Positions 13,458 to 38,252 of a DNA stretch of 64,000 nucleotides are shown piece after piece. Location of the stretch: contig CAYILI010000001.1 of the NCBI GenBank assembly GCA_964364105.1, positions 14,465 to 78,464 of the forward strand. The letters are read 5' to 3'. The translations under genes were made by a program, and so were the position numbers. Every line of letters begins with the position of its first letter. The first letter of the stretch is position 1. The notes under the pieces are model-generated. The model made no database searches. It saw only the letters and a program-made list of their open reading frames with translations, and had not been told where the DNA came from. The stretch is from an uncultured Gammaproteobacteria bacterium (GTDB lineage Bacteria > Patescibacteriota > Microgenomatia > Levybacterales > UBA12049).

Positions 13458-15425
13458 TTACAAGCTTAGTTCAATTTCTTTATCCTGATCCAGTATAAAC
13501 TTTTGCTTTTGTTTACCATTCAATTTAATCGTATATTCATCTTCAGCTGTCCCCGGCTGTTTTTGAATCATCACTGGAAGAGGTGAGCCTTTTTCTACTT
13601 TAAATGGAAGAGTATATTCAAGAGTAAGTTTTCCAATTCCCAGAGGCCTTACCGTTAAGAATCCTTCGAAAACTGTTTTTCCAAACTCTTCATAAGTTGT
13701 CATTTTTACTTCTGATCCAGAGGAATCTTTAAGCTTAGCGCCTTTTGGCACATAAACCCTGAACCAGTTTCTCCATGGAGCATTAAGACAAAGGCTGTTC
13801 TCGGCTTCTAGATTACAGTTAGAAGGTTTATGCGGATTTCTGTAGTTAACAGTAACTTTTTTAGTAATGACTCCATTTCCGCCAACTGTATACTCCTGTA
13901 AAACACTCTGGTCTACGAATAGGTTAGATTTCGCTCCTCCAAAGTTAGCTTCATTAAGATGGAAATAGTCACCTTCAAAATCTCTAATTTGCCCAGTCGC
14001 ATTTACTGCTGAAAGCCCTTCCATAGCATCTTTATTTTCTAGGCTAAATAGGATATGCTTCTGACCAATCTCTGAGAACATTGCCTGCATAAGCGGTCCC
14101 CAATATTGCTTTGGTGAAGATTGAAAAGCTTTATTCATAATCGCAAGCATAAGATCTCCTATGATACTTTTCCTGTCTGATCGAATATATTGGACTCTGA
14201 TTCCAGCAAATTCTTCCAGCTCATAAATAACTTGCGGACAATCGCATCTCTCGTCAATTTTGGTTGTGTAAGTCTGACCATTTACCTGAACGTCTCCTAG
14301 AATTTCCATTGCAGCGACCAATGCATGTGTATCTATTGCGATAATCCCATCTACATCTACATATTTATCTGCTTCTCCATAAAGATCTCTAAATTCTTTC
14401 ATAGACTCCTGGAAATCAGGAGAAAGATTGCTATCGCGAAGATTAAGCACTGGCACTTTTGGAAGATATTTTAAGATAGGCTCTGGGGCCTTTTCCTTAC
14501 CTGAGATTGAATTATCCAAAACATAAATATCTTCTGAAGAATCCACTTTAATTACACCTTTATTAATTCTAAATATGGCGTAGGCTGTAAGAAATCCTCC
14601 AGTAGGCCTGAGCTCTTTGTCATTCTGGAAAAGCACAAAGTATTTCTTTTCTTCTTTTTCTCCAAGAAGCTGCGGAAGAACTTTGATAAATGGACTTGCG
14701 TCTTCTATAAATTTAGTCCCGTCCGTTGCTAAGGTTCTCATAGTCGTCATGCCGTTTCTAACTTTTCCTCCTGCTATAAATGCCGGATAGTCATTTGGAT
14801 TAACGTGATCTATTTCTTTTTGGGCCAGTTTTAGAGACTTTGCAATATCATCAATTCTAGGAGTAACTTTTCCCATAGTTTGAACTGCTGTCTCAATTCG
14901 CTGCTCAGCTGATCCCCCAACAAAACTTCCCTGACCTTTAAGTCCTAAAACGTCTGCATAAGGTTCTACAGACTCTACGAAAACATCAGCTGCATCAAGT
15001 CCATAGAATCCAGCGTTAACCATGTGTCTTGCATCGTTATAGTAAATATTTGGTCCTGGAATAAATCTCATTACCATTAAAAGATTTAATTTCTTCTGAG
15101 TATCTTTTAAGGCTTCACGTGTTTTTTTAAGTTCTTTACCTGTCGCTTCTATGTCCTGCTTCTTAAGCGCATCAACTGTGGCATTAACCTGCGCGTAAGT
15201 TTTCTTAGCAGAAAGATAAGTCAAGAATCCTGGAATTATAATTAGAACGATAAAAAGCATGAAAACTACAAGAAGCCCAATTCCTACTTTTTTATTCTTA
15301 ACTTTGCCAAGTTTTAAAAACCTCGATTTCAATTCTAGGCGCGAAGTTTGGGATTTTGCTTCTGGGTTAGGAGTTGTTTTTACGGGTAAATCAGAGCTTA
15401 GCTCAATCTTTTCGAATCCATCCAT
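13458..15425 (-). CDS. Large membrane-anchored extracytoplasmic protein (655 aa), possibly DUF4012-like
   Basis: Single TM (IGLLVVFMLFIVLIIIPGF) and a long coiled-coil/soluble domain. Lies immediately upstream of the priming sugar transferase, the usual neighbourhood of DUF4012 proteins. The family assignment is not verifiable here. Confidence 0.4.
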   Translation of the reverse strand: MDGFEKIELSSDLPVKTTPNPEAKSQTSRLELKSRFLKLGKVKNKKVGIGLLVVFMLFIVLIIIPGFLTYLSAKKTYAQVNATVDALKKQDIEATGKELKKTREALKDTQKKLNLLMVMRFIPGPNIYYNDARHMVNAGFYGLDAADVFVESVEPYADVLGLKGQGSFVGGSAEQRIETAVQTMGKVTPRIDDIAKSLKLAQKEIDHVNPNDYPAFIAGGKVRNGMTTMRTLATDGTKFIEDASPFIKVLPQLLGEKEEKKYFVLFQNDKELRPTGGFLTAYAIFRINKGVIKVDSSEDIYVLDNSISGKEKAPEPILKYLPKVPVLNLRDSNLSPDFQESMKEFRDLYGEADKYVDVDGIIAIDTHALVAAMEILGDVQVNGQTYTTKIDERCDCPQVIYELEEFAGIRVQYIRSDRKSIIGDLMLAIMNKAFQSSPKQYWGPLMQAMFSEIGQKHILFSLENKDAMEGLSAVNATGQIRDFEGDYFHLNEANFGGAKSNLFVDQSVLQEYTVGGNGVITKKVTVNYRNPHKPSNCNLEAENSLCLNAPWRNWFRVYVPKGAKLKDSSGSEVKMTTYEEFGKTVFEGFLTVRPLGIGKLTLEYTLPFKVEKGSPLPVMIQKQPGTAEDEYTIKLNGKQKQKFILDQDKEIELSL

Positions 15426-27847: not shown

Positions 27848-28401
27848 TATCTAAACCAAGCAGCTCTACCTAATTTATATTGAGGATCTTTATTTGTACG
27901 AATCCCAATCTCTTTTGCGGGAATTCCACCCACTATCTTAAACTCGCCAACATCTTTGGTAACTACTGCTCCTGCAGCGATAATTGCTCCCTTTCCAATC
28001 TTAACCCCGGGCAAAATTATTGCGCGGGGTCCGATAAAAACATAATCTTCGACTTCTACGGGAGCTGTGACAGCTTTAAATTTTTCATCATTTATGTCGT
28101 GCTCTGAATTATAAATCATGACTCCGGTCGCGATATCTACATGATTTCCAATTTTAAGCTTATCTCTTCCATCCAAAACTGCCCACTCACCAACAATCGT
28201 GTCGTTACCAATCTCAATACCACGAGGATTATATATAGAAAGGGCCATATGAATAGTAGAACTTCGCCCTATTTTCATTCCAAAAACTCTATAAGAAAAG
28301 CGTCTTAAATGGTGACTTGGAATAAATCCAACTATCCAAATTAAAAATCCATTAATAAATTCCAAGATTATCGCATTCATTCTTCTGTTCATCTTATCCA
28401 C
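27847..28401 (-). CDS. Hexapeptide-repeat (LbH) sugar O-acetyltransferase
   Basis: IGNDTIVGEWAVLDGRDKLKIGNHVDIATGVMIY...IGPRAIILPGVKIGKGAIIAAGAVV gives left-handed beta-helix repeats. Confidence 0.75.
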   Translation of the reverse strand: MDKMNRRMNAIILEFINGFLIWIVGFIPSHHLRRFSYRVFGMKIGRSSTIHMALSIYNPRGIEIGNDTIVGEWAVLDGRDKLKIGNHVDIATGVMIYNSEHDINDEKFKAVTAPVEVEDYVFIGPRAIILPGVKIGKGAIIAAGAVVTKDVGEFKIVGGIPAKEIGIRTNKDPQYKLGRAAWFR

Positions 28402-29530
28402 GTCCTACCTCCTCTAAAACCGCTAAAGTCTCCCTAGTAGATTTTTCCCAGGAAAACTTTTCTACTTGCTTCTTACCTTTTTCAATAAGCTGCTTCTTAA
28501 GATTATCATCTTCTAATAATTTTTTCATTTTTTCCGATATGTCACTTACGCTATTTGGATCTACATAAAGCGCTGCGTCTCCTCCCGCCTCAGGAAGACT
28601 TGAAACATTACTGGTTATTACTGGCGTTCCATAATTCATGGCTTCAAGAACTGGGATTCCAAATCCTTCATAAAGACTTGGAAGAATAAAAAATTCTGCG
28701 TTTTTATATAAAACTGGAAGCTCTTCGTCCGTTACATTTTCTAAAAACAAAACTTTGTCTTTTACATTATATTTTTCAGGAGCGTTAAGTATTTCCTCAT
28801 ATTTCCATCCCCGTCTTCCAACGATAATCAAACTAACGTCAGTCTCAATTTTTGAATATGCTTCAATAAGACGAGTAATATTTTTTCTTGGTTGAAGAGT
28901 CCCAACAAATAATATGTATTTTCCATTAATTCCAAACTTCTTTCCTAATTTGTCCATACTTAATACACGATACTTACTACTTGATACTTTATTGATTCCC
29001 GGGTAAATTACCTCTACTTTTTCCTCTTTTACTCCGTATTCTTTAATTATATCATTCTTACTTGACTCACTAATTGTTAAGATTTTCATAGATTTTTTTG
29101 CAGAGTAACTAGTCCATTTCTTAAGCTGAATTAAGTCTTTTTTCTTAAAAAGCTCTGGAAAATATAAGTAAGAAACGTCTAAAATTGAAACGACAGATTT
29201 CTTAGGTGCGAAGATTGGTAAATAATGAGTTGGGGTAAAAAAAACATCAAGCGATCTATCTTTTAATAAATTTAAAGATAGAGAAGTAATTGTCCACATT
29301 TTTCTAGAAGGGAGAATTCTGTATTTCCATGTGTCAGTTGCTTTAGGTAAATCATTCGTAGGGCTTTGAGGTAAAAATATTTCGTAGTTATTTTTAACAT
29401 CAATTTTTGCAAGATTTTTTAATAGCTCAAAACAATAGACACTACTCCCAACTCTATTTGGAAGATTTGTAGTTTTGTTATAACCAAATCTCGGAACTAC
29501 CGCTTCGTAACCATTAATTCCAATTTTCAC
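28394..29530 (-). CDS. Glycosyltransferase family 4. Its GTG start is supplied by the end of GIY-YIG element copy 1.
   Basis: EGFGIPVLEAMNYGTPVITSNVSSLPE. The first codon is GTG at 29528-29530, which overlaps the stop of the GIY-YIG ORF. Confidence 0.75.
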   Translation of the reverse strand: MKIGINGYEAVVPRFGYNKTTNLPNRVGSSVYCFELLKNLAKIDVKNNYEIFLPQSPTNDLPKATDTWKYRILPSRKMWTITSLSLNLLKDRSLDVFFTPTHYLPIFAPKKSVVSILDVSYLYFPELFKKKDLIQLKKWTSYSAKKSMKILTISESSKNDIIKEYGVKEEKVEVIYPGINKVSSSKYRVLSMDKLGKKFGINGKYILFVGTLQPRKNITRLIEAYSKIETDVSLIIVGRRGWKYEEILNAPEKYNVKDKVLFLENVTDEELPVLYKNAEFFILPSLYEGFGIPVLEAMNYGTPVITSNVSSLPEAGGDAALYVDPNSVSDISEKMKKLLEDDNLKKQLIEKGKKQVEKFSWEKSTRETLAVLEEVGRG

Positions 29531-29784
29531 CCTGTTAAATAAGATTTAAGTCTATTTCTTAAAAACATCTTTCCATGATATGTTTTAAGATATTTTTCTC
29601 TATGAGTGGCATCTTGCTGATTTAGACAAGCTTCATAGTAAATGAGCTTAAACTTCCCCCTTTCTTTAGTGGATGCAACTTGTTTATTTTCATGCTGCTT
29701 AAATCTTAATTTTAAATCCTTGGTATAACCAGTATAAAACATTTTATCTTTGTCGGATCTAAGAATATAAATGTAGTAAAACAT
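29527..29784 (-). CDS. Stand-alone GIY-YIG nuclease (85 aa), copy 1
   Basis: MFYYIYILRSDKDKMFYTGYTKDLKLRFKQHENKQ contains the GIY-x(10)-YIG core. The C-terminal YLTG is encoded by the TIR. The ORF-track 126-aa version adds an unlikely N-extension. Confidence 0.8.
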   Translation of the reverse strand: MFYYIYILRSDKDKMFYTGYTKDLKLRFKQHENKQVASTKERGKFKLIYYEACLNQQDATHREKYLKTYHGKMFLRNRLKSYLTG

Positions 29785-29811
29785 TCTGGATTTAAAATTA
29801 TTTAACAGGGT
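29529..29811 (-). mobile_element. Miniature TIR element copy 1 (283 bp) encoding a GIY-YIG nuclease
   Basis: Perfect 14-bp terminal inverted repeats: ACCCTGTTAAATAA at 29529-29542 and TTATTTAACAGGGT at 29798-29811. A second copy lies 1.8 kb away. Confidence 0.75.
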
Positions 29812-30346
29812 AAACTGCAGGATAAATAACTTTAACTTTAGATGCTTCAATACCCAAAATTTCTTCAATATCTTTTTTACTCGACTCAGAAATCGTAAAA
29901 ATAACATCTGACTCTTTTTTGAGCCATTTAATTTTCCTTTTTTGTGTATCTATTATTTTCCTGGCAGTTTCTTCTGGATTCTTGTAAACAATAAGGTCAT
30001 ATATAATGGTCGCCTTCTTAGCTTTTTTTGTGGGTGGCTCTGTCCAGTCAGATGTAATAAATAAATCAACCGGACCAATCAGCCATTCGATAGGTAAAAT
30101 GTGCAGCCTGTTCCAGAGTAAATCTAATAATAATGGCGGGAATTTAAATTGTTTAATTTTTACATTTTTAGGAATTGAATGAAAATTGAAAATTGAAAAT
30201 TGAAAATTTCTTCTCATTGATGAGAAGAATAGAATATATTCATTTTTTTTGTCTTCTTTAAGTAAATTTTCAACTAAATTTATCAGGTAGTTTGATACAC
30301 CAGTTTTTGAATAGACAACCTGACTAACATCAATTCCAATTCTCAT
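29798..30346 (-). pseudogene. N-terminal half of a GT4 glycosyltransferase, truncated after ...KVKVIYPAV by a stop inside the TIR of GIY-YIG element copy 1
   Basis: MRIGIDVSQVVYSKTGVSNYLINL is a typical GT4 start. The reading frame ends YPVK-TAA inside the TIR at 29798-29812. The C-terminal catalytic domain is absent. Contains a (GAAAATT)x4 repeat. Confidence 0.6.
30181..30208. repeat. Heptanucleotide microsatellite (GAAAATT)x4 inside the truncated GT4 fragment
   Basis: Read directly: gaaaattgaaaattgaaaattgaaaatt, preceded by a degenerate unit. Confidence 0.9.
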
Positions 30347-31119
30347 AAATTAATTCTAGCAGTATTTAGCTTTCTCGCGTCCACCCGCTCCATAAATTTT
30401 CCTTTTAGAAATTCTGGTAAATCAGAAGGATCACCGCTAAATCCTAACCTCTCTGAAAATTCTCTGCCAATTCTATCCCCAACTTCTCTTTGAATTTCAT
30501 ACAAAGACCTGCCTCCAAACTTTGGTTTATAACTATTACTAAAACCCGCATTTCTTTTAGCCCTTTCTGGATCCTCCTTATTTCCATCCCATCCTCTTTC
30601 TAAATTATCAAAACGCTCGCTAATTCTAACTGGCTTAGTATCCGAAAGCATCGCATCCACAAACCATACGATTTTTTGCTCGTCATCAATTGGCCCTGAA
30701 ACATCATCTGGAACATTTGCACCCGTGAGCTGGATCGTTGCCTCATCTATTCCTAACTCTCTTAAAAGTTGGAAATCTCTATCTCTAATATCATCAAAAG
30801 TTTGCAAACTTAGTGTTCCTGATTCTGCTGCCGCTCTTTGGGCAGTCTGTTCATGCTTTTTATACCAATCATGTAAGATTGCAGCGTGTACGACTCTTTT
30901 CCTTTTTTCTGGCAATAGGTCTAACTGTGCAGCTAAAATATCTGCAAACACACCCGCACCCAAGCAATGCGACGAAACATTTCTCCAGACCTCGGGCCTC
31001 CTACCTAGTGTTTCACCGGTTTTATGAGGCTTAAATGCACTGAGGTGAGAAGCTGCAAATTCAGCCATATATGCTACTTTCGCCCTATCTAAATTTTGCG
31101 GTTCAGTACTATTTTCCAT
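30343..31119 (-). CDS. HD-domain phosphohydrolase-like protein
   Basis: H...HD metal-binding pattern (SSHCLGAGVFADIL ... VHAAILHDWYKKH). The gene is clearly GC-richer (about 42%) than its flanks. Confidence 0.55.
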   Translation of the reverse strand: MENSTEPQNLDRAKVAYMAEFAASHLSAFKPHKTGETLGRRPEVWRNVSSHCLGAGVFADILAAQLDLLPEKRKRVVHAAILHDWYKKHEQTAQRAAAESGTLSLQTFDDIRDRDFQLLRELGIDEATIQLTGANVPDDVSGPIDDEQKIVWFVDAMLSDTKPVRISERFDNLERGWDGNKEDPERAKRNAGFSNSYKPKFGGRSLYEIQREVGDRIGREFSERLGFSGDPSDLPEFLKGKFMERVDARKLNTARINL

Positions 31120-31345
31120 GCTTAAATCTTGAATCTTTGATAATCGATAATAAAACAGCGATTACGAAAAAAACAAAAGAAAACCAAACTAAGCGCTGGG
31201 CTGTAAAAAATATCCATTGGGCAAATAAAGGAATTGAAAGAACCAAACACGAAAGCCCTGCAATCACAAAAAATTTAGGATCTCTTTTTATCAAGAGCAA
31301 AAGAAAAACAATTATAAACAATAAATCCTGTGGTTTAAAATCCAT
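31109..31345 (-). CDS. Small membrane protein (78 aa, 2-3 TM)
   Basis: Hydrophobic ORF. Its ATG is 2 nt downstream of the GIY-YIG copy 2 TIR. Confidence 0.35.
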   Translation of the reverse strand: MDFKPQDLLFIIVFLLLLIKRDPKFFVIAGLSCLVLSIPLFAQWIFFTAQRLVWFSFVFFVIAVLLSIIKDSRFKHGK

Positions 31346-31603
31346 TTACCCTGTTAAATAAGATTTAAGCCTATTTCTTAAAAACATCTTTCCTAAGTAT
31401 GTTTTAAGATACTTTTCTCTATGAGTTGCATCTTGTTGGTTTAAACAAGCTTCATAGTATATAAGCTTAAATGGCCCCCTTTCTTTAGTTGATTGAACCT
31501 GCTTATTCTCATGCTGCTTAAATCTTAATTTTAAATCTTTTGTGTAGCCAGTATAAAACATTTTGTCCTTATCTGATCTTAGTACATATACGTAGTAAAA
31601 CAT
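31346..31603 (-). CDS. Stand-alone GIY-YIG nuclease (85 aa), copy 2
   Basis: MFYYVYVLRSDKDKMFYTGYTKDLKLRFKQHENKQVQSTKERGPFKLIYYEA.... Differs from copy 1 at 5 of 85 residues. Confidence 0.8.
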   Translation of the reverse strand: MFYYVYVLRSDKDKMFYTGYTKDLKLRFKQHENKQVQSTKERGPFKLIYYEACLNQQDATHREKYLKTYLGKMFLRNRLKSYLTG

Positions 31604-31629
31604 ACTAATTTAAAATTATTTAACAGGGT
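31348..31629 (-). mobile_element. Miniature TIR element copy 2 (282 bp) encoding a GIY-YIG nuclease
   Basis: The same 14-bp TIRs, at 31348-31361 and 31616-31629. About 85% nt identity to copy 1. Confidence 0.75.
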
Positions 31630-31633
31630 GAAT

Positions 31634-32560
31634 CTAGCTGGAATATTTTAATAGAATTTTAGATTCGTTTTCGCTTTTACTTGAGATATTGAGAACTAAA
31701 TCCGCGATAAGACCAGTAAGTCCGACTTGGAGCCCAGCTATGATAAGAAGCATTCCTAAAACCAGCAAAGGCCTTGTCCCAATCGCCTCACCCAAAAAAT
31801 GCAGGATTGATAGATATAAGGAAATCAAAATCCCCAAACCAAATAAGATAGCTCCTATAAATCCGAAAAAATGAAGTGGTCGCTTACCGTATTTGCTTAA
31901 AAAAATCATGGTCATCATATCAGGCATCTGCGTTAATACTTTAAGAGCTCCATATTTACTCTTACCCCAGCGTCTTTCATCATGAACGACTGCAACTTCT
32001 GTTACCCTAAATCCTTCCTGTGCTACTAAAAGCGGTATGAATCTATGCATTCCACCATATAAATTTACCGACTTTGCTGCATCACTGGTGTAAAGTTTTA
32101 GTCCGCAATTATAATCATGAAGTCTTACTCCCCAAAACATTGAAGCGACTAAGTTAAATGCTTTTGAAAATATAATCTTGGCAAAAGAATCTTTTCTTTC
32201 TTTTCTCCATCCGGAAACCATGTCATATCCTTCTTTATGTTTCTCGATCAATTTGTGGACTTCTGAAGGCTTGTCCTGAAGATCAGCATCCATTGTAACT
32301 ATCAAATCCCCCTTGGCTTTTTGGAAACCAAAAGTTAAAGCTTCTGCTTTACCATGATTTCTTCGGAAAGAGTAAACCCTAATATTTGAATCTTTCTTCT
32401 CAAGATCCCTGATCAAACTCAATGTATTATCAAATGACCCATCATCAATAAAAATTATTTCGTATTCCTTTGATAGAATTTTTGCGTGCTTTAGGAGCTC
32501 TTCATAGAAATGAAGAATACTCTCCTCCTCATTAAAAACTGGCACTACATAACTAATCAT
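31634..32560 (-). CDS. GT2 polyprenyl-phosphate glycosyltransferase (DPM1/GtrB/ArnC-like, with C-terminal TM helices)
   Basis: ISYVVPVFNEEESILHFYEELL...EIIFIDDGSFDNT and a two-helix C-terminal anchor. Confidence 0.8.
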   Translation of the reverse strand: MISYVVPVFNEEESILHFYEELLKHAKILSKEYEIIFIDDGSFDNTLSLIRDLEKKDSNIRVYSFRRNHGKAEALTFGFQKAKGDLIVTMDADLQDKPSEVHKLIEKHKEGYDMVSGWRKERKDSFAKIIFSKAFNLVASMFWGVRLHDYNCGLKLYTSDAAKSVNLYGGMHRFIPLLVAQEGFRVTEVAVVHDERRWGKSKYGALKVLTQMPDMMTMIFLSKYGKRPLHFFGFIGAILFGLGILISLYLSILHFLGEAIGTRPLLVLGMLLIIAGLQVGLTGLIADLVLNISSKSENESKILLKYSS

Positions 32561-32587
32561 GAATTGCGGAATCTAAACCTAATTTTA

Positions 32588-34630
32588 TCATTTCCTCACT
32601 CTTTTTGCTAAATTCACAATTAGAAAAAGAATAATTACTACAAAAGCTGACAGACTCACTATAATCCCTTTATTCACCCAGTCTTGAGGCTTGTAGTAGA
32701 CTTTTAGGTCATAGATACCATCTCTGGGCAGGATAAAGCTATTGATTTTATTTTTATATATAGCACTACCAATCACCACGTCCCCATCTACTGCAACCCA
32801 GCCAGGGTCATAATTTTCAGAAAAAATAACTGAATCTCCTCTCTTGCCTCCTTCAATATTAATTCTGTATTCAACAGGACTAATGTATTGATAATTTATT
32901 TTTGCATCGATATTTTCAGAACCAGTACCAGAATTAAAAATATAAAAACGACTTTTTGGTTGCTTAACCTCAAATAAAACTATTTTCCCGAATTTACTTT
33001 TTTCTTCTAAAAAACTCGATTTTCTAAGACTATTAATTGTATTTTCGTATAAAGCTATATCGGGATTACCATCATTTACAAAAATTTGGTTATTGATATC
33101 ATCTGCAACTACTATATATTTAACTGAAGAAAGATCCACTAATTCCCTATCTAAACTAACTTGGTTAACTAATTTTTTGTTGTCGTAAATTTCATACAAT
33201 GCACGAGCAGGAATAATTGGATTTGTAGGGGAATAGTAGGAATAAGGAGTAAAATTCGGAACCCAAAGAGTTCGATAATAATCTTTATCTTTAATTAGAT
33301 AGTTTGTCAACTCAACATAGTTTTTAGGAACACTCCTTGATGCAAATGTCCCTGTTAATCCTCCTGTAAACGCTTGATGAATCAATAAGCTCCAAATTAT
33401 AATAAAAATTAACATTATGATTTCTTGATTTAAAGGTTTTGACTTAATCTTTATTAGCTTTGCGAGCAGGAAAATACTATATGGTATAAGAACTGAATAA
33501 GCGATAGATATTAAGCCATACCATTTTGTAGGATCTCGAAACATCAGGAATCCAGGAATATTATTAAACATCCACAGGTATATGTTTCCGAACGGAGTCG
33601 TTGAACCCTTTGCCAAAAAAATACCCAAAATCCCAATAATTGAAAATGTTACAACGATTCTCTTTTCAAATAAATTTCTGGTGTTAAGTAAAAATAAGCC
33701 CAAAAATCCAATCAGGGGAATTATCAAAAATTCTGGACGCATAAAGTGTGTTTTGCCAAAAATATTTTCAGGCCAATTAGGATGAAGTAACGATATAGTA
33801 TTCTCCAGTCGCGCAAAGCTTAAATAATCAACCATACCTTGATTTGTATAAGATTCCCCTAAATTACTTAAAGGATTCTGTCCTATAAAAACGAATGGGA
33901 CAATCCAAAAGAAATTTAAAAACACAATTACAGTTCCAGGAATAATCAAAAAGGAAACTAGAGTTTCTCTTAAGCTTTTAAAAAAATTATTGCTCAAGAG
34001 AAAAGTAACGTAATAAATCCCTACTATAAATAATGATATATAGCCAATTCTGGGATCAATCATCAACTGGACAGAATATATAATCCCAGCGATAATTGAA
34101 ATATTTATAATCTGTTTTGAAGCTAAGTTTTTTAAAATGTTCGCAAAACTAAATAAAACTAGGGGGATTAGTGAGTATGCTACCCCAACACCTATTTGAC
34201 CACCTCCAATCGTCATCAAAATATATGTATTTGTTGTAAATATCAGAACAGATAGTACAGCAAGAACATTGTTATTTATAATTATTTTTTTAAAAAAAGC
34301 GAATGATCCAATAAGCGAGAGCAATAAAAATGGAAAATACCAAACTATTTTTTCTGAAATATTCCATTCGAATCCTGCCAGTCTTAAAAGAATTGCCGGA
34401 GCAAACTGTGCATAGGTGCTTAAGGGAAGTAAAAATGTTATATTGTTACCCATTCCATTAGAAAAGTTAGCATCCCATGCATAAAAATAAAGCGGAGAAG
34501 CAAGGATAGCTTGGGGAAATTTAAAAGTCCAATCGCCTGTAGACAAAGACTCTAATGAAAACCAATCTTTAAATATAAAAATAAAAACAATAATGACTGT
34601 GAAGAAGATTAATCTATTAATATTTAGCAT
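32588..34630 (-). CDS. Polytopic GT-C-like membrane protein (680 aa)
   Basis: About 13 TM helices plus a large C-terminal extracytoplasmic domain. Family not assignable from sequence alone. Confidence 0.4.
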   Translation of the reverse strand: MLNINRLIFFTVIIVFIFIFKDWFSLESLSTGDWTFKFPQAILASPLYFYAWDANFSNGMGNNITFLLPLSTYAQFAPAILLRLAGFEWNISEKIVWYFPFLLLSLIGSFAFFKKIIINNNVLAVLSVLIFTTNTYILMTIGGGQIGVGVAYSLIPLVLFSFANILKNLASKQIINISIIAGIIYSVQLMIDPRIGYISLFIVGIYYVTFLLSNNFFKSLRETLVSFLIIPGTVIVFLNFFWIVPFVFIGQNPLSNLGESYTNQGMVDYLSFARLENTISLLHPNWPENIFGKTHFMRPEFLIIPLIGFLGLFLLNTRNLFEKRIVVTFSIIGILGIFLAKGSTTPFGNIYLWMFNNIPGFLMFRDPTKWYGLISIAYSVLIPYSIFLLAKLIKIKSKPLNQEIIMLIFIIIWSLLIHQAFTGGLTGTFASRSVPKNYVELTNYLIKDKDYYRTLWVPNFTPYSYYSPTNPIIPARALYEIYDNKKLVNQVSLDRELVDLSSVKYIVVADDINNQIFVNDGNPDIALYENTINSLRKSSFLEEKSKFGKIVLFEVKQPKSRFYIFNSGTGSENIDAKINYQYISPVEYRINIEGGKRGDSVIFSENYDPGWVAVDGDVVIGSAIYKNKINSFILPRDGIYDLKVYYKPQDWVNKGIIVSLSAFVVIILFLIVNLAKRVRK

Positions 34631-37239: not shown

Positions 37240-38252
37240 CCAAATATAAAAAGGGCGTAAACTAATTCATTAGCAATTTTCTGCACACTATTAAAACCAA
37301 ATGGAATTATAGCAATCCAAAAAATTACAATAATTAAACTTACTTTAAATGAAACAATACTCTTTAATTTGAAATAATAAACAAAACAAGTCCAGGAAAA
37401 TAAAACAATCATGAACTCATTTAGAATCAGATTTTTTGGCGAAATAATTATTAAAAGAATTATAAAAATATATATCTTTAAATATTTTCTTTTAAATGGC
37501 ACAACTATATGCTTTGCATTTATTGGAAAACGTTTAAAAAATAAGAATAAAATAAATGGCACAACTATATGCTTTGCATTTATTGGAAAACGTTTAAAAA
37601 ATAAGAATAAAATAGAATATAAAATCAGTGGAATAAGATAAATTGAAGATTTAATCAATAATTCTAAATCAGTAATTAACCCAAAAATCTTATTTGAAGC
37701 AAATTCTATTGTTTTTAACCCTCTTCCCATTATTTCAGATTTTGAATATTGATAACCTGTAATAAACACTAAAGGTGATTTTAATTTTATAGGATTATTA
37801 CTATCGCCTCTTGTAGAAGATAACTCAAACTGATAAATTTTATTTTTGGAATTAGAAATTACCGGAATTCCAAATGGAAAATGTGACTGGCTATCAAAAA
37901 GAAATGAGGAATATTCCATCTTGTAGTCCCAATCAATTCTACCTTTCTCTTTAAACTTAAAAATTAATATATCTTCGTTTCCAGCTTTTTGTCTCTTGTA
38001 ATCGTCGATGCTTATAATCAAAATTCCCAAGTTATTATCTTTTGCTTTAAACTCCCACTTGTAAGTCTTATTCTTAGATAAATTAAATTCATTATTACTA
38101 GAATTTACTAAATTTTTCGTTTGATAAGTTAATACAGAAAAGCTAACCCTATTCAACAATAAAACTGATGCAATAAGCCAGAATAATATTAATAAGGGAA
38201 ATATAACCAACGCTAAATTACTTAGAAAATTATTTTTTATCTTTATCTTCAT
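37188..38252 (-). CDS. Membrane protein, paralog A of 41745-42815. Contains a perfect 60-bp tandem duplication.
   Basis: N-terminal TM, an extracytoplasmic domain (LGILIISIDDYKRQKAGNEDILIFKFKE...FPFGIPVI) and a C-terminal multi-TM region. Homologous along its length to 41745-42815. Confidence 0.4.
   Translation of the reverse strand: MKIKIKNNFLSNLALVIFPLLILFWLIASVLLLNRVSFSVLTYQTKNLVNSSNNEFNLSKNKTYKWEFKAKDNNLGILIISIDDYKRQKAGNEDILIFKFKEKGRIDWDYKMEYSSFLFDSQSHFPFGIPVISNSKNKIYQFELSSTRGDSNNPIKLKSPLVFITGYQYSKSEIMGRGLKTIEFASNKIFGLITDLELLIKSSIYLIPLILYSILFLFFKRFPINAKHIVVPFILFLFFKRFPINAKHIVVPFKRKYLKIYIFIILLIIISPKNLILNEFMIVLFSWTCFVYYFKLKSIVSFKVSLIIVIFWIAIIPFGFNSVQKIANELVYALFIFGCLQLLYEQVKSIKKIG
37495..37614. 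repeat. Perfect 2 x 60-bp tandem duplication inside a CDS (in frame, duplicating 20 aa: LFLFFKRFPINAKHIVVPFI)
   Basis: aatggcacaactatatgctttgcatttattggaaaacgtttaaaaaataagaataaaata occurs twice consecutively with 100% identity. Confidence 0.9.

Follow-up and report, generated by a model that had tools for sequence, protein, structure and literature searches.

Very small, probably selfish elements that carry one 85-residue GIY-YIG nuclease gene in DNA with the pairing of a three-way junction

The 64,000-nucleotide stretch analysed here (the window; positions 14,465 to 78,464 of contig CAYILI010000001.1, assembly GCA_964364105.1) holds two copies of a unit of about 284 bp, each with a gene for an 85-residue GIY-YIG nuclease between ends that can pair with each other. 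We consider it probable that these copies belong to a family of widespread, very small selfish elements that carry a single minimal nuclease gene and are mobilised through a junction formed in DNA. The evidence comprises insertion polymorphism, copies of one element at multiple sites, a covarying three-way junction, miniature units without an open reading frame (ORF) and the boundaries they define, and an intact protein that is under selection and resembles Slx1. In our proposal the nuclease would be the mobilising enzyme, the structure would act as DNA and not as RNA, and the entire cutting and joining chemistry is putative.

The two homologous segments had been described in an earlier note on this DNA and were recovered at 29529-29811 (283 bp) and 31348-31629 (282 bp), with about 85% nucleotide identity; the ungapped repeat between them covers 271 nt (29526-29796 versus 31345-31615) and is also 85% identical. 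Both ends of each copy carry the same exact 14-bp inverted repeat, ACCCTGTTAAATAA, which occurs four times in the window in exact form (plus strand, 29529-29542 and 31348-31361; minus strand, 29798-29811 and 31616-31629). With up to two mismatches there were 7 matches in the window against 1.2 expected, and none of 100 shuffled sequences reached 7. Each copy contains an intact 85-codon GIY-YIG ORF on the minus strand (29527-29784 in copy 1, 31346-31603 in copy 2; Pfam E value about 1e-15), and the two proteins differ at 5 of 85 residues. Two points of the earlier description had to be corrected. The last four residues of the ORF, YLTG, are encoded inside the repeat as stated, but of the stop codon only the first base lies there and the other two belong to the flank. 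The 14-bp repeat is an exact inverted repeat, but the terminal stem that pairs has 12 bp because positions 13 and 14 belong to internal helices. A more fitting name for the "terminal inverted repeat" is therefore the outer stem of a three-way junction. The label "autonomous" goes beyond the data, in which the nuclease is a candidate for the mobilising enzyme.

Both window copies are insertions. Empty sites were reached through homologues of the neighbouring GT2 glycosyltransferase gene (31634-32560, minus strand), which were 83-86% identical and were located on contigs. The four closest syntenic relatives (L082, L083, L086 and L091) have the same operon with neither element copy, and a GIY-YIG gene was present at neither window position in any of them. 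Their gene order is membrane protein, GT2, an ORF of 75-77 residues, the N-domain of a GT4 glycosyltransferase (176-191 aa), GT4 (377-380 aa), hexapeptide transferase and GT2. At site 2 the window reads CTAGATTC-element-AAATGGATTTT, where L083 has CCAGTAAATAAATGGATTTT and L086 has TAATAGTTAAATGGATTTT. At site 1 it reads GCAGTTT-element-GAAAATTGG, and L082 has GCAGTTTAAATATGAAAATAGG. Filled and empty alleles were found at several other sites as well.

The unit is also repeated elsewhere. A motif-based scan with one genome per species gave 402 confirmed stretches, of which 80 were fetched. About 95 distinct copies were examined, and essentially all had the same inverted termini. Near-identical copies sit at different sites: the element encoding protein P0016 was found at three gene junctions in one population with copies 99-100% identical in nucleotide sequence. 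Two of these sites are in the operon type of the window, one at the junction of the GT4 N-domain gene and GT4, as for copy 1, and the other at the junction of the 78-residue ORF and the GT4 N-domain gene. Polymorphic sites, dispersed copies and near-identical copies at multiple sites show that this is a mobile unit and not a local duplication. A local duplication with coincidental inverted termini, for which the distance of 1.8 kb between the copies was the sole argument, failed on every count and was dismissed.

The protein had relatives in more than 5000 clusters. The 120 best listed were 75-95% identical to the query (best match 95%), had 84-85 residues in nearly all cases and came from Levy-, Davies-, Falkow-, Staskawicz- and other bacteria of the candidate phyla radiation (CPR) and beyond. 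The 80 fetched stretches belonged to Patescibacteria, Bacteroidota and a few archaeal bins. In a published groundwater study, GIY-YIG genes are listed among the transfers out of Patescibacteria (PMC12455944). Elements of the family are about 282-295 bp long and occur in several copies per genome at variable sites, and in the roughly 95 copies the GIY-YIG nuclease is the only gene between the arms. In essentially every locus TTC, TTT or TTA followed by ACCCTGTTAAATAATTTTAAAT stands 3-25 nt upstream of the nuclease ATG, as the mirror image of the gene's 3' terminus, AAATCTTATTTAACAGGGT(G/A)A. Many contigs break off some 120 nt into the element, as a repeat would lead one to expect; the look-up of P0195 gave only contigs ending in the element and no empty alleles. 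Plasmid and phage records lacked the element and viral contigs were almost free of it; in the searches of these collections one miniature was the only match. A description of such an element was not found in the literature, Rfam or NCBIfam; the literature search did not extend to subscription journals, so that an earlier description is possible.

Some loci have rearranged copies. In L022 (about 320-640) the 19 nt on each side of a full element are mutually reverse-complementary (TGGAAACATTTTTAGATTT and GAATCTAAAAAAGTTTCCA), a pattern that speaks for an inverted rearrangement or for chimeric assembly by way of the element. In L118 (2094-3271) a long GT4-type ORF comes straight after the first element, in place of the GT4 N-domain gene and second element seen in L113 (4675-7017); either the interval between two direct copies was deleted or the copies were collapsed in the assembly. 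Solo 5' ends, consisting of the arm and the subterminal segment, adjoin full copies in L036 (2932-2990), L017 (3259-3290) and L076 (3259-3280) and are remnants of tandem or partly deleted copies.

The pairing of the ends was examined in an alignment of 86 distinct copies. The 14-bp repeat was 97% paired, with compensatory changes at 6 of its 14 positions; positions 13 and 14, where G.T and A.G combinations stood out as odd, have their true partners in the inner helices. An internal segment of the gene, ATTTAAAATT-AAGATTT, is perfectly complementary to two subterminal segments, AATTTTAAAT (S5) on the 5' side and AAATCTT (S3) on the 3' side. The resulting junction has three helices of 12, 10 and 7 bp and no unpaired bases where they meet. 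In copy 1, the 5' arm of the outer stem (ACCCTGTTAAAT, 29800-29811) pairs with the 3' arm (ATTTAACAGGGT, 29529-29540), as indicated by covariation and the minimum-free-energy fold, and the 3' arm codes for the YLTG end and the T of the stop codon. S5 (29790-29799) pairs with I1 (29708-29717), and S3 (29541-29547) pairs with I2 (AAGATTT, 29701-29707), where I1 and I2 form the internal segment 29701-29717 that corresponds to codons 23-28. In copy 2 the arms are at 31618-31629 (5') and 31348-31359 (3'), S5 (31608-31617) pairs with I1 (31527-31536), and S3 (31360-31366) pairs with I2 (31520-31526), with the internal segment at 31520-31536. All these segments are on the minus strand, in gene sense.

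The inner helices covary. S5 and I1 were found as AATTTCAAAT/ATTTGAAATT, GATTTTAAAT/ATTTAAAATC, AATTCAATAT/ATATTGAATT, AATTTCAGGT/ACCTGAAATT, AGCTTTAAAT/ATTTAAAGCT and others; nine distinct sequence pairs were perfectly complementary, accounting for 35 of 47 distinct rows. The variants of I2 and S3 were all complementary (AAGATTT/AAATCTT, ACGATTT/AAATCGT and AAGACTT/AAGTCTT). Over 44 distinct rows, 98.0% of the cells were paired and 13 of the 29 pairs had changed on both sides, with compensatory change in 7 of the 10 pairs of helix 2. None of 500 shuffles matched the junction on four of the five measures, and slid controls were 27-57% paired. Folding by energy alone recovered the junction in both window copies with z scores of -5.1 and -5.2. 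Wobble pairs were nearly absent.

Besides the full copies, the fetched DNA (about 707 kb) contained 12 shorter units, which measure 41-58 nt, lack an ORF and share the outer stem of the full element; the window has none. In 11 of these miniatures the stem encloses two short hairpins of unrelated sequence, and in one, which is nested in the element copy of L068, it encloses a single hairpin. Ten miniatures were folded and nine gave perfect three-way junctions, the tenth being the L068 unit with outer stem and single hairpin (z scores -5.3 to -8.2). The hairpins mostly have loops of 3 nt (for example GAA, AAA or GTA) closed by a C:G pair, as in GCGAAGC. Loops of this kind are a signature of stable DNA hairpins.

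The flanks of the copies were aligned, as the earlier note had proposed, for 95 distinct full copies. Upstream, T was found at -3 in 92 and at -2 in all 95 copies, and position -1 was C, T or A (40, 42 and 13 copies) and never G. Downstream, +1 was A or G (52 and 40), +2 was A in 91 and +3 was A in 89. The pair at -1 and +1 was C..A in 36, T..G in 35 and A..A in 12 copies; Watson-Crick combinations occurred just 8 times. Of the two arms of a copy, one is a TTC arm and the other a TTT arm, in either orientation relative to the ORF, and the C..A and T..G classes are one arrangement read from opposite strands. The miniatures obey the same flank rule, which is therefore not caused by the stop codon. 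The flanks TTN...NAA of full copies are inverted and not direct repeats.

The boundaries were defined by three clean miniature pairs. In L103/L105 versus L107, GGATAT^GAAAAT is converted to GGATAT-TC-(48-nt core)-GAAAAT. In L104/L022 versus L102, AACCATTT^ATCTATTT is converted to AACCATTT-(core)-GA-ATCTATTT. In L068, where a miniature has entered the 3' arm of an element copy, the family consensus TTATTTAACAGGG is restored only by removing TC together with the 41-nt core. The inserted unit is therefore the core plus 2 nt on one side (TC, which reads GA on the opposite strand), and its target is T^NAA, with no target-site duplication in the three pairs and nothing lost. Four other boundary models were ruled out by these pairs: one in which the core alone is inserted, one in which the whole of TTN...NAA belongs to the element, one with insertion at the middle of TTAA and one with a 2-nt target duplication. 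Head-to-tail junctions of the form GGGT-GA-ACCC were seen in L017 and L076.

Applied to the window, the core-plus-2 rule places copy 2 at 31348-31631 (minus strand; core 31348-31629 and TC at 31630-31631 on the 5' side in gene sense). Removal of TC and core predicts the empty site TAGATAAATGG; L083 has TAAATAAATGG at this junction, with a single mismatch in 11 bases. By extension from the miniatures, copy 1 would span 29527-29811 (minus strand; core 29529-29811 and GA at 29527-29528 on the 3' side). This copy appears to need a second step: insertion at TTT^AAATATGAAAAT would give GAAAAT-AT-GAAAAT, and loss of one GAAAAT repeat would then leave the observed sequence, with GTG where ATG stood. 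A secondary event comparable to this is on record in L102, L104 and L109, in the arm-to-arm deletion described below.

Several observations and trials concern the C..A and T..G classes. An element with an 86-residue ORF, inserted in the same orientation between the genes Lcl_C and bAvd, has the flanks TTC...AAA in L104 and L124-L133 and TTT...GAA in L107; the switch amounts to two coupled transitions that keep -1 and +1 non-complementary. Several staggered-cut and overhang models were tried for the rule, and the data were reproduced only by a speculative one in which a heteroduplex carries a C.A mismatch at each junction; we could not justify how such a heteroduplex would arise.

The relation of the elements to host genes was counted at 91 distinct sites. 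At 41 of them an ORF on the same strand starts within 6 nt of the element 3' end; the start codon overlaps as G/ATG with GGGTGA in 14 of these and follows as TAAATG in 13. At 29 of the 91 sites the upstream ORF ends at a TAA in the element 5' end, in the arm or the first subterminal bases. Of the neighbour genes that could be identified, about 80-85% are co-oriented with the element. The 91 flanking contexts are distinct, with no single conserved allelic target site among them, and the same protein was found at three unrelated junctions.

A case of gene splitting was found in a Bacteroidota lineage (P0119, 109 collection blocks), in which the element lies inside the bAvd gene of a diversity-generating retroelement. 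The full element divides bAvd into ORFs of 71 and 47 residues in L100, L101, L106 (1861-2488) and L107. Both halves are conserved among diverged carriers, and intact homologues of 114 residues are 91-92% identical (P0241, L110). The same retroelement region contains the diverged 86-residue element, present or absent beside an identical bAvd protein, and two miniatures. In L102, L104 and L109, compared with L103, L105 and L107, 45 nt of host DNA and a miniature have been lost by deletion between the identical 3' arms of the full copy and the downstream miniature; the C-terminal bAvd fragment is 15 codons shorter as a result and has a new GTG start. In L130 (about 470-545), which lacks the 86-residue element, another insert of about 75 nt with a long inverted repeat (GCAGAGTCAAGC/GCTTGAACTCTGC) occupies the same spot, and insertions seem to accumulate at this intergenic spot of the retroelement.

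The position in operons raises the question whether the junction works in RNA. The unit would then be a homing-endonuclease gene of the free-standing type, spreading through the repair of double-strand breaks, and the fold of the transcript would insulate it in the operon, for example by processing with a host RNase, control of nuclease translation or even removal from the mRNA. RNA parameters predict the fold just as well, the start codon lies inside the first helix, and the co-orientation and operon embedding suit such a role, as does the copy that splits bAvd, which was kept with both halves conserved and whose core could be removed in frame. Homing endonucleases such as I-TevI limit their own translation by RNA structure, which also counts in its favour. 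However, the ORF-less miniatures have nothing to express and yet keep the outer stem and nearly always the full junction. The pairs are almost purely Watson-Crick; a sense-strand bias of the wobbles, which would have been evidence for RNA, was tested and not found (21 versus 13). The asymmetry of the TC side is equal in both ORF orientations (36 versus 35), as fits a strand-symmetric DNA feature, and the insertion sites are non-homologous, unlike those of allelic homing. No match to the elements and miniatures was obtained with the Rfam 15 covariance models at E values up to 1. We regard an RNA function as unlikely. The near-absence of wobbles, the lack of strand bias, the DNA-type loops of the miniatures and the cleavage of branched DNA by solved relatives of the nuclease argue that the junction acts as DNA.

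Both window proteins match the Pfam family GIY-YIG (PF01541) with 58 bits, against a cut-off of 22.6. In 32 aligned sequences Y6, Y17, G19, R27, H31, E51, E63 and N77 were invariant; they would form the GIY-YIG catalytic core, with individual roles assigned by analogy. The AlphaFold2 model of the copy 2 protein has a predicted local distance difference test score of 86 and the order beta-beta-alpha-beta-alpha. All significant or best matches in the structure search were GIY-YIG domains. Foldseek listed 1zg2 (UPF0213 protein BH0048) first, then the Slx1 nuclease domain in complexes with branched DNA (template-modelling scores 0.60-0.66), and I-TevI and UvrC lower; the sequence of the copy 2 protein also matched PDB entry 1zg2 (E value 2.6e-8). 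All 85 residues are catalytic core, and the homing-endonuclease family profile TIGR01453 scores 25 bits, against a cut-off of 56. The protein is thus a minimal stand-alone GIY-YIG nuclease of the Slx1/UPF0213 type, nearer to these than to UvrC or I-TevI. Structure-selective cleavage of branched DNA by the 85-residue protein may be expected by analogy with these relatives. ANKLE1, another GIY-YIG nuclease, is specific for branched DNA (PMC7610144). In an earlier classification the stand-alone prokaryotic GIY-YIG proteins were placed in the Slx1 cluster with a predicted role in repair, and a GIY-YIG domain recently inserted in an HsdR gene was described (PMC1564403).

The protein is under purifying selection, since synonymous sites vary freely over most of the ORF while the residues are conserved. 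Synonymous sites are frozen in two stretches, codons 79-85 in the 3' arm and codons 23-29. Such selection is also what a domesticated system would show, in which the nuclease is kept for a cellular role at structured repeats, for example to resolve branched DNA, in a manner like that of repetitive extragenic palindromic (REP) sequences and their associated tyrosine transposases (RAYT). The layout is RAYT-like, with a nuclease gene between inverted structured repeats and ORF-less repeats nearby, and the repair role predicted for prokaryotic Slx1-like proteins (PMC1564403) points in the same direction. Against this stands that the closest relatives do well without either copy, that genomes carry several copies at variable sites, that insertions split genes and cause adjacent deletions, and that the protein is 75-95% identical between hosts of distant phyla, which indicates horizontal transfer. 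A host-useful system therefore seems to us quite improbable.

The element ORF was searched with NCBIfam and Pfam for a transposase of the DDE, HUH, serine, tyrosine or Cas1 type and none was found; the GIY-YIG nuclease is the sole ORF. It could in principle be a passenger or a retention factor, with the element and the miniatures moved by another enzyme with its gene elsewhere or by general host recombination or replication slippage at the hairpins. GIY-YIG nucleases are incapable of strand transfer, and the deletion between the arms of a full copy and a miniature demonstrates that host recombination acts on the arms. We rate this as very improbable in view of two observations: the nuclease is the sole gene between the arms in about 95 copies from very different hosts, and the terminal stem is conserved across phyla while the inner hairpins vary, as if a cognate protein travelled along. 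The same two observations suggest that the nuclease mobilises the unit.

We propose the following mechanism. The nuclease gene occupies DNA of which either strand is able to form a perfect three-way junction. The structure-selective nuclease would recognise the terminal stem on this junction, probably in single-stranded DNA, and would cut at the base of the stem, so that the DNA from stem to stem together with TC is released or exposed. Host enzymes would then join the unit into short AT-rich T^NAA sites with no target duplication, by ligation or replication-coupled copying, which we assume for this step. The ORF-less miniatures would be mobilised in trans. Surviving copies would be mostly those co-oriented in operons at gene boundaries, where the element 5' end can give a stop (TAA) to the upstream ORF and the 3' end can give or abut a start (GTGA/TAAATG). 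Host expression would thereby be preserved, and the nuclease would be translated by read-through and coupling.

A number of points weigh against mobilisation by the nuclease through a DNA junction. GIY-YIG enzymes are hydrolytic and do not join DNA by themselves, and the link from the nuclease to movement is one that we infer. The strong conservation of the protein could reflect a role useful to the host. Covariation alone cannot separate DNA from RNA. The loops of the full-length junction are about 75 and 150 nt long, so that it would not be extruded from duplex DNA and a single-stranded phase is needed. The diverged 86-residue subfamily (L107, 1766-2036) keeps the terminal stem, with compensated changes in its arms ACCCCGTTAGAT/ATCTAACGGGGT and the ATG directly after the arm, but its fold does not show the inner helices clearly. 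None of the full-length copies could be matched with an empty site that was clean to the nucleotide, and site 1 of the window, the bAvd site and the site of the 86-residue element need steps beyond simple insertion of core plus 2 nt. The model gives no account of the orthologous site whose flanks are C..A or T..G depending on the lineage.

The effects on the host operon can be followed in the window, where all genes concerned are on the minus strand. The GT4 gene (378 aa, 28394-29530) takes its GTG start from copy 1 (GGGTGAAAATT), as the earlier note had recognised: the codon consists of the last two bases of the element core and one further base and overlaps the TGA stop of the nuclease ORF. 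The relatives have ATG AAA ATA at the same position, so the natural ATG has been swapped for a GTG made from the element 3' end. The GT4 N-domain gene (182 aa, 29798-30346) receives its last four codons and stop (YPVK*) from the 5' arm of copy 1 and the first two S5 bases. In its TAA (29798-29800) the first base is the last base of the 5' arm and the other two lie in S5; four codons and the TAA of the element 5' end thus stand in place of the natural TAA. Truncation of this gene by copy 1 was considered and ruled out. It is a normal separate gene because the relatives carry the same short gene of 176-191 residues. At copy 2, the TAA of the nuclease ORF is followed with 0 nt between by the ATG of the 78-residue membrane ORF (31109-31345), which gives the TAAATG already pointed out in the earlier note and places the ATG 2 nt past the core; this ORF is kept directly after GT2 in the relatives, with 75-78 residues. 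The GT2 gene on the other side ends 4 nt upstream of copy 2.

Further features were seen in the same region. A gene for an HD-domain protein (258 aa, 30343-31119, minus strand) lies between the two copies; none of the four closest syntenic relatives has it. Its G+C content is 0.38-0.43, compared with about 0.29-0.35 in its neighbours. An exact look-up of its protein in the protein collection gave no match, and a single metagenome scan gave only a relative with 43% identity. In L096, a more distant relative, an element copy sits exactly at the junction of the 78-residue ORF and the GT4 N-domain gene, which is the spot of the HD-domain gene. A contig of 1 kb from Hainich groundwater is 99.5% identical to window positions 31789-32759. 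At 37493-37612 the window has a perfect 60-nt tandem duplication with two identical copies.

To our knowledge, prokaryotes very commonly have stand-alone GIY-YIG proteins of the UPF0213/Slx1-like kind, for which no function is known and which are often misnamed "excinuclease ABC subunit C". If our proposal is true, at least one large branch of them consists of mobile-element nucleases, and a nuclease class not known to drive prokaryotic DNA transposition would be added to those that do. The 85-residue protein and a substrate of about 50 nt would then also be a very small, testable system for structure-guided DNA recognition. Annotation pipelines should recognise these elements, which split genes such as the bAvd gene of the retroelement, make starts and stops, cause deletions and break CPR assemblies.

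Among known systems, the REP/REPIN sequences with their RAYT genes are similar in that a single small nuclease-type gene lies between inverted structured repeats, with dispersed ORF-less units that are presumably acted on in trans, and in that recognition of folded DNA is expected. RAYT is a HUH/Y1 protein that cleaves and rejoins DNA, whereas the enzyme of the element is a hydrolytic 85-residue GIY-YIG protein. RAYT genes are single-copy and vertically inherited; the elements described here are multi-copy, variable in position and horizontally spread, and their fold is a three-way junction that includes part of the ORF.

The IS200/IS605 insertion sequences (IS), for example IS608, share the absence of a target duplication, a very short AT-rich motif and asymmetric ends, and the need for folded single-stranded ends, which we propose for the present elements, would be a further likeness. 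They use the HUH enzyme TnpA, have separate left and right hairpins and measure 0.7-2 kb, whereas here one stem joins the ends of a unit of 0.28 kb. They also insert 3' of a fixed tetranucleotide, which the present elements do not, and the 2-nt asymmetry found here has no strand or orientation bias. Operon-embedded miniature inverted-repeat transposable elements (MITEs) such as Correia, RUP and ERIC are likewise short inverted-repeat elements that can contribute expression signals, and our miniatures fit this description. As in IS and MITE families, inverted repeats are common to ORF-bearing and ORF-less copies. Correia, RUP and ERIC are DDE-derived and make target duplications; the present elements make none, have a GIY-YIG parent outside the known transposase classes and form a three-way junction.

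Free-standing GIY-YIG homing genes, such as T4 Seg and the relatives of I-TevI, are also selfish, lie between host genes and are co-oriented with them, often with overlapping starts and stops. Their proteins have about 200-250 residues with a DNA-binding domain and address one allelic site, and they have neither inverted termini nor miniatures. The element protein has no such binding domain, and its sites are many and unrelated. Slx1 and UPF0213 (BH0048, 1zg2) are the best matches in sequence and structure and share the minimal GIY-YIG core. Slx1 cuts branched DNA, matching the junction-forming DNA around the element gene; it works with its partner Slx4 and has a RING domain. Neither a mobile-element context nor a flanking structure of UPF0213 proteins was found in the literature searched.

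Taken together, the element works most like REP/RAYT or IS200/IS605 but departs from both in lacking a HUH enzyme. We take it for a selfish mobile element that encodes a nuclease and has given rise to miniatures, and the chance that it represents a new transposon class is considerable. More tentatively, and as a possibility that we find somewhat less convincing than mobility through the junction itself, the family may be a new class of prokaryotic transposable elements and, at about 284 bp, the smallest known mobile element to encode a protein. As "transposase" it would use a bare, structure-selective GIY-YIG nuclease that recognises the three-way DNA junction made by the ends and the coding sequence of the element, the junction would also define the miniature family, and the near-perfect TTC/TTT arm rule, which holds in either orientation and even at one orthologous site, would be the footprint of strand-symmetric joining.

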